A stretch of DNA of 64,000 nucleotides, taken from NCBI RefSeq assembly GCF_011745625.1, contig NW_027191490.1:62001-126000 (forward strand). The letters run 5' to 3'. The position numbers were made by a program, and so were the translations under genes. How positions within the stretch are numbered: position 1 is the first letter of the stretch; each line of letters begins with the position of its first letter. Below are positions 7,746 through 15,075 of this stretch, piece after piece. Under the pieces are notes generated by a model that was not told where the DNA came from, made no database searches, and saw only the letters and a program-made list of their open reading frames with translations. Source of the stretch: Cladosporium halotolerans (Eukaryota).

Positions 7746-8462
7746 TCACAGACGGCGACCACGGCGACCACCCTTTCTGCGGGTGGAGTCGGAGGGAGTC
7801 GGGGTGACGTCCTCAATACGGCCGATCTTCATGCCGGAACGGGCGAGGGCACGGAGGGCGGACTGGGCACCAGGACCGGGGGTCTTGGTGGAGTTGCCTG
7901 AAAAGAGTCTTAGTATTCTGGAATTCCCTCGACACCATACGCTTTGGGTATACATACCACCAGTAGCCCTGATCTTGATGTGGAGGGCAGTGATGCCGAG
8001 CTCCTTGCAGCGGACGGCGACGTCCTGGGCAGCCAGCATAGCGGCGTAGGGCGAGGACTCGTCACGGTCGGCCTTGACCTTCATGCCACCGGTGACACGG
8101 GAGATGGTCTCACGGCCACTGGAATCACCCAGGTTAGCCTTTGTACCATTTCTTTATTTTTGCACCAAATCGCCAAATGTTCTCGAGTCGCGAAATTCGG
8201 CGGTTGGTGGAGGTTCAGACGTACGAAAGATCGGTGACGTGGACGAAGGTGTCGTTGAAGGAGGCGAAGATGCGGGCAACGCCAAAGACGAGCTCGCCTG
8301 AGAATCGTTCCGTCAGCAATTGTTTCTCGCGATTTTCGCGCCGACCGACGGTGGTCGTTTGTCGCGAATTGGGCGGTTGCAGCGATTCTTACCCTCGCGG
8401 ACCTGGGGGCCCAGGGAGATGTTCTCCTGAGGGGCGCGGGTGACCTGCTTCTTGGGGGCCAT
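7746..8462 (-). CDS. RPS14: 40S ribosomal protein S14 (uS11)
   Basis: MAPKKQ..., [55 protein letters not shown]; introns 8392-8298, 8224-8119, 7957-7898. Confidence 0.97.
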
Positions 8463-8812
8463 GGCGACGGTATTTGACGACTGGGGTGGTGGTATTCGGA
8501 GTCGCTGGAGTCGGCCGTGAAAAGAAGAAGTCTCGCTCGCTGGCGGTTAGCGGGCCGGTGGGGAGGAATTGGAGAGTGTGCGGTGCAGCCTCAGGCTAAA
8601 ATTTCGCCAAGGCCCGAAGCTCGCCGCGGGCAGTCCGAGCACCGCCGCTTTTCATTCGCGACTTCATTCAAAGCCGCGCAGCTTCCCGCCATTTCTTTAC
8701 CACCTGTTCATCTCACGTTTGCACTCGCACACTGCGCAGCGCATCCCAGCGACCGTCGGCCTTTGTTTGCGTAAGGCACGTATGGTGAGCGCGAGGCTCG
8801 CCAACCGCCAAA

Positions 8813-10629
8813 ATGGGCGACGCAGTCGTGGGAATCATCGGAATGGGTGATATGGGCAAGATGTACGCCCGCAGGATCGCCGACGCTGGATGGAGGTAGG
8901 TGCAAAGATCTCGCACGAGTCTGTTTGCACTGTCTCGAAGCACAAATGGTACGTTCGCCCTTTTCCCCGACACGCACCCTCTCCTTGCATCCTGATGACT
9001 TGAGTGCATTTGGCTCGAGTATGGCCGCCTGGCACCAGCCATGCCATCTCGGCGTGGTTGACTGGGCGGCTGTCAATGATGTAAAATCTCAGCTACCTTA
9101 TAATTTTTGTCTGAAAAGCAAAAGAAAAACACATCCGATCTTCACTACCAAACGAAGCGAAGAGTCTGTACTGACTGTGCATCAGATTTTCTATTATTTC
9201 TTAAACTCACTCTGTTCAGGGTACACGCCTGTGACATTCCGGAGAAGTATGATGCTCTTGTCCAAGAGTTCTCTGATCGCGTACGCAGTGCACCAATCCA
9301 ATGTTACATAGTTGTCATATATAGAAAGCATGCTGAGGCTTCAGCAGAAAAACATTACCATATTGCAAAACGGCCATCTTGTCTCCCGCAGCAGTGACTG
9401 GATCATGTACAGCGTCGAGGCCAAGAGCATTGACTCAGTCGTAGCGCGCTTTGGTCCCTCGACTAAGCAAGGCGCTATTGTCGGTGGCCAAACGTCCACC
9501 AAGGCTCCGGAGATCGCCGCTTTCGACAAACACCTTCCCAAGGACGTCGATGTTGTCTCGTGTCATTCACTCCATGGCCCTGGTGTTGATCCAAAGGGTC
9601 AGCCTCTTGTGATCATCAAGCACCGCGCCTCGCAAAAGTCTGTCGACCTGGTGGAGCAGATCCTCAGCTGCTTCCAATCCAAATATGTCCACCTTTCAGC
9701 CGAGATGCATGACCGCATTACCGCGGACACCCAAGCGGTCACACACGCTGCCTTTCTCTCCATGGGCTCCGCTTGGGAGGCCAACAAGCAGTTCCCCTGG
9801 GAAGTGCCGCGCTATATTGGTGGCATCGAGAACGTGAAAATGAACATTACTCTGCGCATCTATAGCAACAAGTGGCACGTGTACGCAGGTCTCGCGATCC
9901 TCAACCCAAGTGCCAAGCGCCAGATTGGGCAGTACGCTGAGAGTGTCACTGAGCTATTCAAGCTTATGCTGGGTGGGCATAGGAAGGAGCTCACGGAACG
10001 TATTCACGCCGCTAGAGCTGCAGTGTTCGGAACGCGCAAGGTAGAGGATGAATTGCTGCTGCACGACGAGCTTCTCGATCAATTCAGTCTGGGTGAGAAG
10101 CCGGCGCAGAAAGTCCGCAACAACCATCTCAGTCTTCTTGCCATGGTGGATTGCTGGTGGAAGTTGGGCATTGTGCCATATGATCATATGATCTGCTCCA
10201 CGCCAGTAAGTTCGCCATGTGGAGCTATAAATACGACAGTTATCTTGCTGACAAGGTCATAGCTCTTTCGTCTTTGGCTAGGCATTACCGAGTATCTTTA
10301 CCGCAACGAAGACCTGCTCAATGAAAGCATTGACAATGCCATCACCGACAGTACTTTCGTGGCGGATGATCTGGAGTTCACTTTCGCTGCCCGGGTATGC
10401 GCGCTTCAACAATTGCCAAAGCTTAACATCATCGCTAACCTTGCACGTGCAGGACTGGTCTAACCGCGTCTCTTTGGGTAACCTAGACGGGTATCGAGAG
10501 AAGTTCGAGAAGATCCAGCAGTACTTCAGCCCTCGCTTCGCAGAGGCCACCAAGGTCGGTAACGAGATGATTAAGACGATCGAGGAGAACCTCAGAGCGC
10601 GGAAGGCGGAGCAGGAGGCAAAGGAATGA
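8813..10629 (+). CDS. TYR1: Prephenate dehydrogenase (NADP+)
   Basis: GIIGMGDMG Rossmann motif in exon 1; GGQTSTK, CHSLHGP, HDRITADTQAVTH, YSNKWHVYAGLA; introns at 8896-9219, ~9281-9347, ~10206-10263, ~10395-10452. Confidence 0.93.
8988..9118 (+). ncRNA. snR13: Box C/D snoRNA, snR13-like (guide for LSU rRNA Am2280/Am2281 equivalent), intronic in TYR1
   Basis: C box TGATGA 8993-8998; guide GCATTTGGCT antisense to LSU AGCCAAATGC; internal GC-rich hairpin ~9024-9070; C'-like ATGATG ~9076; second element GCTACCTTA antisense to LSU TAAGGTAGC; D box CTGA 9111-9114; TGAGTGCATTTGGCTCGAGT matches yeast snR13 as recalled. Confidence 0.88.
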
Positions 10630-13257: not shown

Positions 13258-15075
13258 CTAGCCCAGATTGTACGCGAACTTGCTCCAGCTGCGGATCTTC
13301 GCGCCGTACTTGTACAGGAAGAACGTGGCCGGCACGAGCGTCACGCACAGGAAGGCCAGCAGGCTCGTCGCCCACTGCGTGCCGAGGTCCTCGTACATGT
13401 AAGAGGCGAACAGCGGGAAGACGGCGGCGACCAGGCTGCGGATGAAGGTGTTGGCTGCCAGCGCGGAGTTGGCGTCAAAGAGATAGACGTCCACTAGGTA
13501 GACCACGGCCGGCATGAAAACCATGATGATCTGGAAATGGTTGGTTAGTATGTGTTTGATGAGCTGTAGGTGGGAATGGGGAGGACTTACACCACAGCCG
13601 ATGAAGATTCCGCTCACGATCTGCGGCCAGGGGTTGATGCTGGGCTGAGACGTCCAGGCGAACCAGAACAGGCCGATCACAAGGATGACGCCGCCGACCA
13701 TCATCGGAGGTAGGCGTTCTTCGGGAATGACTTTCTTGGCCTTGACCAATTTGGGCGTGAAGATGGCTTTGGTTTCCCACGTCAGGGCAGCGCAAGCGAT
13801 CAGTACACCGATGAAGATGGCGATGAAAGGCAGCGACGCGGTGCCAAAGGGAATCTGTCGGTCCAGCTCGAAACTGAACGGGTATGCGAAGAAGATGAGG
13901 TACAGGATGCCGTACACCAAGCTGATGTAGACGGTCATCACGATCAGGATGGGCTCTTTGATCATCATCTGGACGGGTTTCAGGCCGTACTTGCGTAGGA
14001 GGAAAGCAGCGTGGACGGGCTCCTCGTCCAGCTTCGTGTGCAGAGCCCAATTCCTAGGCTCATGGCGCAAGCGTGCGGCTTTCTGCCTGAGCAGGACGGG
14101 GGGGAAGGTCTCCTTCACGGTGAACAGAGCGATCGCCCAAAAGAATGCCCCCATGATCATTGTGAACCAGGCAGTCCAGTGCCAGCCTAGCGAAGTGTTC
14201 TTGACGGTGAACTCGCCGACGATAGGACCCACAGCAGGGCCGGCAAAGACGGCCGCGGCGTATGCCATAGTGGCGACGGCCCGGGCAACAGGATCGAACA
14301 TGTCGACCGCCAACCCAGGAACGATGGCGAGCGTTGCGCTTCCGAAGGCTCCACCGAAGAATCGACAGACAAAAATTGTTTGAAGGTTGTTGGCGACACC
14401 GACCGGAATTTGGAAGACCAGGAATCCGAGCATTCCAATCATGAGAGGCCAGTATCGACCGTAGAGTTCGGAAAGAGGACCGAAGACCAGAGGACCAAGC
14501 GCAAACCCTACGACATACAGGGTGACTCCCAAAATCATCACTTCCTGACTGACACCAAACTCCTCAGCTGTTACGGTGGTCGCAGTGGACCAGACGGAGC
14601 TTCCAAACGAGACGACAAAAGTCATGAAGGCCAGAATCATGATAGACTGCCATTTGTACACCGAGCTCCAATTCTGAGGGTTGTCTGGGTCCTGTGGTCC
14701 ATTCCAATCGACGAGGTCCGTTCTTTCCTCTTGCGCTCCAGGTTGCCCGGGTTGCGACGAAGGCTGGTCGGTATGGCTTGAGGCCGGGGCTGCGTTGTCT
14801 TCTTCTTCATTCTTCTCATCGAAGGGCCGAGAAGCGGATTGCTCCCTTTCGGTCTTGAACGACCCCGTGTCGCTGTTCCGACGAGTGAAGGCTGAGGGCA
14901 CAGGAGGGACGTCTGGTACCTCGGAGTCGAGTTTCTTGATGGAGCCTGCGGCCGAAGAAGTGCCGGAGATCCGGTTGTACTTGACGGAATTGACGATTGT
15001 AGGAGTTTCAGAGAAGCGATTGGTATTGATAGTATTGGCCTCCAGATCGCGCTGGCCTTCGGACGCTTGAGACAT
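13258..15075 (-). CDS. MFS DHA1 (drug:H+ antiporter) transporter
   Basis: VDWNGPQDPDNPQNW, GPLSELYGR, KETF, PEERLPP motifs; 60-nt in-frame intron 13590-13531. Confidence 0.92.
   Translation of the reverse strand: MSQASEGQRDLEANTINTNRFSETPTIVNSVKYNRISGTSSAAGSIKKLDSEVPDVPPVPSAFTRRNSDTGSFKTEREQSASRPFDEKNEEEDNAAPASSHTDQPSSQPGQPGAQEERTDLVDWNGPQDPDNPQNWSSVYKWQSIMILAFMTFVVSFGSSVWSTATTVTAEEFGVSQEVMILGVTLYVVGFALGPLVFGPLSELYGRYWPLMIGMLGFLVFQIPVGVANNLQTIFVCRFFGGAFGSATLAIVPGLAVDMFDPVARAVATMAYAAAVFAGPAVGPIVGEFTVKNTSLGWHWTAWFTMIMGAFFWAIALFTVKETFPPVLLRQKAARLRHEPRNWALHTKLDEEPVHAAFLLRKYGLKPVQMMIKEPILIVMTVYISLVYGILYLIFFAYPFSFELDRQIPFGTASLPFIAIFIGVLIACAALTWETKAIFTPKLVKAKKVIPEERLPPMMVGGVILVIGLFWFAWTSQPSINPWPQIVSGIFIGCGVSPPHSHLQLIKHILTNHFQIIMVFMPAVVYLVDVYLFDANSALAANTFIRSLVAAVFPLFASYMYEDLGTQWATSLLAFLCVTLVPATFFLYKYGAKIRSWSKFAYNLG

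Follow-up and report, generated by a model that had tools for sequence, protein, structure and literature searches.

An intronic box C/D small nucleolar RNA, very probably orthologous to yeast snR13, in a prephenate dehydrogenase gene of Cladosporium halotolerans

We analysed a stretch of 64,000 nucleotides (nt) of Cladosporium halotolerans DNA (NCBI RefSeq assembly GCF_011745625.1, contig NW_027191490.1, positions 62,001 to 126,000 of the forward strand; the window), in which an earlier note, made from the letters alone, had described an snR13-like box C/D small nucleolar RNA (snoRNA). The element lies on the plus strand in the first intron of a gene for prephenate dehydrogenase (TYR1-type, tyrosine biosynthesis), and we are highly confident that it is the orthologue of Saccharomyces cerevisiae snR13 and Neurospora crassa Nc CD1, a box C/D snoRNA of about 125 to 130 nt. 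The C and D boxes and the hairpin between D' and C' were found where the note had placed them, and the parts of the element are as follows.

8988 to 9118, plus strand: predicted mature box C/D snoRNA, very probable snR13/Nc CD1 orthologue; ends placed by analogy with the Nc CD1 clone
8993 to 8998, plus strand: box C, UGAUGA (TGATGA), from the sequence
9006 to 9014, plus strand: predicted D' methylation guide, complementary to large-subunit (LSU) rRNA ...GCCAAAUGC
9015 to 9018, plus strand: box D', UCGA, non-canonical, identical to the yeast consensus (extended form CUCGA, 9014 to 9018)
9021 to 9073, plus strand: internal hairpin, with 2-nt linkers to D' and to C'
9076 to 9082, plus strand: box C', AUGAUGU (ATGATGT), from the sequence
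9092 to 9100, plus strand: putative accessory (extra base-pairing) element GCTACCTTA, complementary to LSU UAAGGUAGC
9111 to 9114, plus strand: box D, CUGA (CTGA), from the sequence

These parts follow the order that is canonical for box C/D snoRNAs, with all four boxes and both complementary elements intact and a C-to-D length of 122 nt. The Nc CD1 clone on which the ends are modelled extends from the C box to the D box (PMC2780460). Two segments had been claimed to be complementary to overlapping parts of a conserved LSU sequence, and indeed the 10-mer GCATTTGGCT (9006 to 9015) and the 9-mer at 9092 to 9100 are the reverse complement of positions 7 to 16 and 1 to 9, respectively, of the 16-nt LSU motif quoted in the note, with a 3-nt overlap. 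Each of the two is single-copy within the window, and the pair at a distance of 60 to 90 nt occurred once, compared to 0.00 occurrences expected from 100 shuffles. The guide abuts D' and is also complementary to the published N. crassa 26S target strand of Nc CD1 (3'-CGUAAACCGA-5'); the target would lie within the 25S rRNA segment ...UAAGGUAGCCAAAUGC.... The D' box itself had been read as CGAG following the 10-mer; it is instead UCGA (9015 to 9018) or CUCGA (9014 to 9018), as in yeast snR13, which makes the final one or two letters of the 10-mer part of the box. In the minimum-free-energy (MFE) fold, the stretch following box C (8998 to 9005, ACUUGAGU) was paired with 9013 to 9020 (GCUCGAGU, D' included), leaving the guide in a 7-nt loop. 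The same letters are present in the yeast consensus and were fixed by the pattern with which homologous loci were sought (see below), which places this pairing beyond covariation analysis.

In a permissive Rfam scan, snR13 (RF01223) was the sole related family that aligned to the element (18.0 bits, E 1.7), and over the guide and D' the window was identical to the model consensus at 20 of 20 nt (UGAGUGCAUUUGGCUCGAGU). Applied to the whole window, the permissive scan gave nine sub-threshold rows and no further credible snoRNA; the best-scoring of them, a snoU83B candidate on the minus strand (13990 to 14071; 26.4 bits versus a threshold of 35) lies in an open coding frame and is probably a false match. 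Identification as snR13 would be incomplete if based on 18 bits alone, and this gap was closed by the literature on yeast snR13, Nc CD1 and Trichophyton rubrum TRnc_338. To methylate L2280 and L2281, yeast snR13 employs two D' boxes that overlap, UCGA (4 nt) and CUCGA (5 nt), and the second site needs the C directly before UCGA plus an "accessory guide" (van Nues and Watkins, PMC5389607), which agrees with the note's statement of a D' box of non-canonical form plus additional base pairing for 2280/2281. Methylation of two adjacent adenosines has been demonstrated only in yeast, and snR13 is listed among the snoRNAs with conserved extra pairing overlapping the rRNA target of the guide (van Nues et al. 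2011, PMC3116282). In N. crassa, Nc CD1 (EU780925) is an intronic snR13 homologue of 125 nt that was cloned as cDNA and was positive on Northern blots, and the match of its D' guide to 26S-Am2242 is 10/0 (Liu et al. 2009, PMC2780460). Aligned by eye, the window and Nc CD1 are identical at 29 of 30 nt from box C to the first nucleotide past D' and at 38 of 41 nt from C' to box D, and together with the 20 nt shared with Rfam this upholds the snR13-like identity. The two differ in length between C box and D box (122 nt in the window versus 125 nt), in D' (UCGA versus UAGA in Neurospora) and, throughout, in the sequence of the hairpin. Neither the main text of PMC2780460 nor any of its seven supplements names the gene that hosts Nc CD1. 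TRnc_338 is an intronic 135-nt cDNA of T. rubrum assigned to RF01223 snR13, with 25S Am2267 as its predicted target (PMC3890542); it shares with the window the intronic location and the RF01223 assignment, a likeness by table entry and not by sequence. An intronic snR13 is not new, as it has been published for both Neurospora (Nc CD1) and Trichophyton (TRnc_338).

With S. cerevisiae snR13 the window shares the order of the parts (C, guide, D', hairpin, C', accessory element, D), the target region (LSU A2280/A2281) and, also with the Rfam consensus, the accessory core GCUACCU, located 10 nt past the C' core. Differences are found in the D'-C' spacer, which is 56 nt long in the window and 31 nt in a yeast-type locus (L082, one of the metagenome loci described below), and in the C' box, which is a canonical AUGAUGU in the window versus GUGUGGA in the Rfam snR13 consensus. 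Furthermore, the window copy is intronic, whereas the yeast-type locus is without splice signals. Yeast snR13 is an independent transcription unit, and Rfam assigns snR13 to clan CL00045, to which we take human U15 to belong as well. Most yeast snoRNAs are independent genes according to PMC2780460, where U15 is entered as the homologue of snR75/Nc CD7 and not of Nc CD1; human SNORD15 (U15) is among the human snoRNAs described as having conserved extra base pairing (PMC3116282).

Homologous loci were collected by running a seed of 18 bases from the guide and D', with one position open, against metagenome contigs, and at least 111 loci matched. Among the matches listed, 105 loci also had a C box at most 12 nt upstream, GCTACCT downstream and CTGA at most 30 nt beyond; six others (L021, L023, L044, L073, L088 and L108), without a C box and the other parts, were rejected as chance matches. 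Once duplicates are merged, the 105 loci amount to 83 distinct sequences of the snoRNA and hence do not represent independent species. Of these distinct sequences, 70 have a C-to-D length of 118 to 135 nt (the long form, as in the window) and the other 13 measure 79 to 103 or 145 nt; D' is CTCGAG in 76 and CTAGAG, the Neurospora form, in 7. An alignment (MAFFT) was made of the 70 sequences and the window, 71 in total, leaving out the 13 shorter or longer forms. Box C GATGA was invariant in all 71 but was a filter criterion, and the C' core TGATG, which was not a filter criterion, was likewise invariant (71/71). Twenty of the at least 111 loci (11 long-form loci and 9 short or long forms outside the alignment) were scored against Rfam at the gathering threshold, and only 3 passed for snR13, namely, L082 (170 bits), which is essentially the yeast snR13 consensus, and both L110 and L009, at 54 bits. 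All 11 long-form loci tested fell below the threshold, and overall 17 of the 20 homologous loci were missed by the model. Shared architecture and the three passing loci, as intermediates, link the long form to the curated snR13 family.

The internal hairpin (9021 to 9073) comprises 22 base pairs at −36.6 kcal/mol (z −4.83), and none of 200 shuffles folded as well. Across the 84 distinct sequences with the window among the matches listed, the D'-C' spacer folded with z below −2 in 75 and below −3 in 61 (median z −3.9; 100 mononucleotide shuffles each). RNAalifold retained eight hairpin pairs on the plain MAFFT alignment, and covariation was counted on those eight. Standard pairs occupied 91.0% of the 568 cells, compared to 74.3% after shuffling and 18 to 48% when the partner was slid; compensatory changes on both sides were present in all eight pairs, and cells with a double change numbered 111 versus 36.5 expected, a count reached in 0 of 500 shuffles. 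The hairpin covaries. A variant was also encountered among RNA-library contigs, which came from four runs (X15 to X18) of four studies, were placed on 8600 to 9600 and give no RNA ends, strand or level. In this contig (X15 record 5, 8925 to 9187), the boxes and guides were unchanged, and the substitutions at 9042, 9053 and 9063 all preserved pairing (U.G to C-G, G-C to G.U and G.U to G-C).

The same contigs define the exons and introns around the snoRNA. The features of the host gene and of its divergent neighbour are as follows.

8813 to 8895, plus strand: host exon 1, starting at ATG (MGDAVVGIIGMGDMGKMYARRIADAGW...)
8896 to 9219, plus strand: outer host intron 1, 324 nt, GT..AG; joint 8895/9220 in contigs of X15, X16 and X18 (three studies)
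8949 to 9185, plus strand: inner intron, 237 nt, holding the snoRNA; 5' site GTACGT, branch-like TACTGAC at 9169 to 9175, ending in CAG
9220 to 9280, plus strand: host exon 2, from contig joints
9281 to 9347, plus strand: host intron 2; joint 9280/9348 in X16 and X18, with exon 3 from 9348
7746 to 8462, minus strand: divergent neighbour, ribosomal protein uS11 (RPS14-type) gene; Pfam Ribosomal_S11, E 7.7e-34

The host is transcribed and intron 1 is removed, and the spliced contigs with joint 8895/9220 bear out the intronic location given in the earlier note. Exon 3 has a weak match to Pfam PDH_C (E 5.5e-4), just short of the curated cut-off. The snoRNA region was covered by contigs of X15, X17 and X18, all longer than the snoRNA or crossing the 3' splice site, and X16 contigs did not cover the snoRNA itself; one X18 contig (record 16, 8957 to 9112) has a 1-nt deletion in the guide at a depth of 2.1, possibly an error. 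On the other side, the ATG of the uS11 gene (8460 to 8462) is 350 bp from the host ATG at 8813.

This context is conserved. All context counts are restricted to loci among the matches listed that had enough flanking sequence. Downstream of the snoRNA, and on its strand, a prephenate dehydrogenase frame occurred in all 47 long-form loci whose downstream flank measured 900 nt or more, and the divergent uS11 gene was present in 40 of 41 with at least 1,200 nt upstream, compared to 0 of 12 and 0 of 11, respectively, for loci of other forms. In all four mid-length loci tested (L008, L030, L043 and L050), the snoRNA (near position 1500) came after a same-strand frame with a ubiquitin-conjugating (UBC) domain that breaks off at about position 110 of the 140 in the profile, with a 5' splice site 40 to 48 nt before box C and a branch site downstream. 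The mid-length snR13 homologues (87 to 103 nt) sit in a simple intron that splits the UBC domain of a large UBE2O-like ubiquitin-conjugating enzyme gene, a host other than that in the window. Splice signals were found neither in the yeast-type locus L082 nor in the AT-rich loci L015 and L017.

Within intron 1 the snoRNA lies in a second, inner intron. The joint 8948/9186 was present in contigs of two studies, in X15 at a depth of 12.3 and in X18 as record 14 (144 nt), in which the inner intron is gone and both outer sites are unspliced. Signals for such an inner intron were surveyed in 65 distinct long-form loci (window included) with both exon borders mapped, among the matches listed. In 59 of the 65, the stretch from the outer donor to box C contained a further, strong donor motif (shuffles would give 8.0 such loci), whose median distance to box C was 41 nt (interquartile range [IQR], 38 to 46). 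In 63, the stretch from box D to exon 2 contained a branch motif with YAG after it (17.8 expected), and from box D to the first branch motif the median distance was 52 nt (IQR, 49 to 56). In the 59 loci with both inner signals, the outer intron had a median length of 344 nt and the inner intron one of 238 nt, and removal of the inner intron would leave a median of 108 nt. In N. crassa the 5' splice site usually lies 41 to 60 nt from an intronic snoRNA (PMC2780460). Two long-form loci (L069 and L111) have one plain prephenate dehydrogenase intron and not a nested pair; with the donor 50 to 54 nt before box C and the acceptor 69 or 70 nt after box D, the geometry is the same.

One U2-type intron inside another, with an RNA from which only the inner one has been removed, is also what has been seen in the stwintrons and nested introns of Pezizomycotina. 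By published abstracts, the internal intron of a stwintron interrupts a splice signal of the external one. Here the outer donor GTAGGT (8896 to 8901), the branch-like CTCAC (9206 to 9210) and the acceptor AG (9218 to 9219) all lie intact outside the inner intron, which interrupts none of them, and a stwintron is therefore ruled out. With its signals intact without inner removal, the outer intron could be removed in one step. The inner joint was found in X15 and X18 and the outer joint in X15, X16 and X18, and the contigs give no precursor-product order. In fungal snoRNA clusters, complex introns are reported to be spliced stepwise around snoRNAs, and a different nested case, an intron within snR51, is on record (PMC3596301). 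Our literature searches found no paper on the conserved host with its uS11 neighbour or on the nested inner intron; those on prephenate dehydrogenase, snoRNA and intron found none within their range, with bioRxiv supplements and figures outside it, and among papers on stwintrons, nested introns and snoRNAs none concerned snR13 or this host, as judged from titles and the first part of abstracts.

For the nested arrangement we tentatively propose an account that we rate at somewhat short of even chances. In the long-form lineage, snR13 would reside in a "snoRNA-competent" inner intron of its own, nested in the older prephenate dehydrogenase intron. The inner intron would often be removed first, releasing a snoRNA-bearing lariat and leaving an ordinary short intron (about 90 to 110 nt) that is then spliced. 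Such an arrangement may go back to the insertion of a mobile intron with its snoRNA into an intron that was already there, where it would have been kept since, with the divergent uS11 gene 350 bp away; in the other lineage, the host would be the UBE2O-like ubiquitin-conjugating enzyme, whose simple intron shares the geometry of the inner one. Alternatively, the inner sites may be alternative splice sites that have been conserved and that give rise to a non-productive isoform.

As for the snoRNA itself, it would be transcribed within the first intron of the prephenate dehydrogenase (TYR1-type) gene and set free by splicing and debranching, with exonucleases trimming the ends as far as the assembled small nucleolar ribonucleoprotein (snoRNP). 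By analogy with yeast, the 9-nt guide upstream of D' (UCGA or CUCGA) would pair with the conserved LSU sequence ...GCCAAAUGC, and the two overlapping D' registers would place in the active site of fibrillarin two adjacent adenosines, those that correspond to Am2280 and Am2281 of yeast. The target lies opposite the fifth nucleotide upstream of box D or D' (PMC5389607), and by this rule, as applied there to yeast snR13, U9010 and U9009 would be opposite the two target adenosines. The second element, GCUACCUUA, whose yeast counterpart is required for the second methylation, may bind the rRNA just 5' of the target and stabilise the short duplex, and the long internal hairpin would hold D' and C' together to form an internal protein-binding motif. 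Judging from work on yeast and Neurospora, stable accumulation of the RNA, assembly of the snoRNP and methylation of both adenosines are to be expected in C. halotolerans.

Several observations weigh against identification as a functional snR13. An Rfam search, which the earlier note had proposed as a check, was only partly favourable, since the snR13 alignment was obtained with permissive filters, at 18.0 bits against a gathering score of 47 and over the 5' part only, and at the curated gathering thresholds the whole window gave 0 matches. The nucleotide before box C is a C and not the purine of the consensus RUGAUGA, and the C' box ends in U. The only candidate for a terminal stem, 4 base pairs between TTGC (8984 to 8987) and GCAA (9118 to 9121), is outside the MFE fold and offset from the boxes by 4 to 5 nt on the C side and 3 nt on the D side. 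The sequences used to check complementarity were the LSU motif from the note and the N. crassa target strand as published, and not the rRNA of this species, which is absent from the window (0 Rfam matches at curated thresholds). That guide and D' do not vary among the homologous loci is in part a consequence of the search itself, whose pattern prescribed their letters. Finally, no discrete species of about 125 nt or RNA ends were evident in the RNA-library contigs, which cannot show ends, and the X15, X17 and X18 contigs over the snoRNA could stem from pre-mRNA, lariat or contaminating DNA. The sub-threshold Rfam score is accounted for by a model that is too narrow, as it missed 17 of 20 homologous loci, and not by absence of homology.

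The contig data leave room for a decaying or silent relic, with the functional snR13 gene elsewhere in the genome, and T. rubrum has two snR13-type entries (PMC3890542). We nevertheless judge this very improbable, since none of the four boxes is disrupted, nor is the guide or the accessory element, the element is at the same place in the same host intron in all 47 listed long-form loci with enough flank, and compensatory change in the hairpin extends to the closest variant contig; intact parts, fixed position and compensatory change are the marks of purifying selection on an RNA. Similarly little credence is due to the reading in which both elements are independent guides and 9092 to 9100 directs a third methylation, in UAAGGUAGC, via box D. 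The element is 9 nt long and lies in the C'-D region, where the D guide normally sits, but it ends 10 nt before box D and for that reason cannot obey the fifth-nucleotide rule set out in PMC5389607. Among the matches listed, moreover, the spacing from the C' core TGATG to GCTACCT was 10 nt in 74 of 84 sequences, 9 nt in 9 and 11 nt in 1, while the distance from the element to box D ranged between 11 and 16 nt once three mis-parsed rows had been excluded, so that the element is positioned relative to C' and not to D. Mutation of the yeast element, which acts as an accessory, weakened methylation of L2280 and abolished that of L2281 (PMC5389607), and the stretch 9092 to 9100 fits an accessory element rather than a second methylation guide.

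It could also be argued that the primary role is in cis, with the intron structure acting on the prephenate dehydrogenase transcript, by control of its splicing or nonsense-mediated decay, and the likeness to a guide being secondary, given that the inner-spliced, outer-unspliced form was present in contigs of two studies and would hit an in-frame stop right after exon 1. The same RNA architecture, however, was present in introns of ubiquitin-conjugating enzyme genes (4 of 4 mid-length loci tested), and the yeast-type locus L082, devoid of splice signals, still scored 170 bits for snR13. As the architecture is found outside this host, it is the snoRNA that is conserved and not the host, which makes a primary cis role extremely unlikely; an effect in cis could exist as an added layer on an snR13 orthologue.

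Taken as a snoRNA, the element fills an annotation gap with a well-understood guide RNA, and the finding itself is ordinary for filamentous ascomycetes. The Rfam snR13 model is blind to the filamentous-fungal long form (0 of 11 tested), and genome annotation pipelines will consequently miss such snoRNAs. What the locus adds to the published record is modest: a host gene and neighbour that are conserved, a switch of host in another lineage, and a nested intron. Because the host and the uS11 neighbour are conserved, the host has been switched, and the intron within the intron is conserved with a spacing typical of snoRNAs, the locus is a compact natural test bed for the coupling of snoRNP assembly to splicing in fungi with short introns, and it is likewise suited to tracing the movement of snoRNA-bearing introns between genes.

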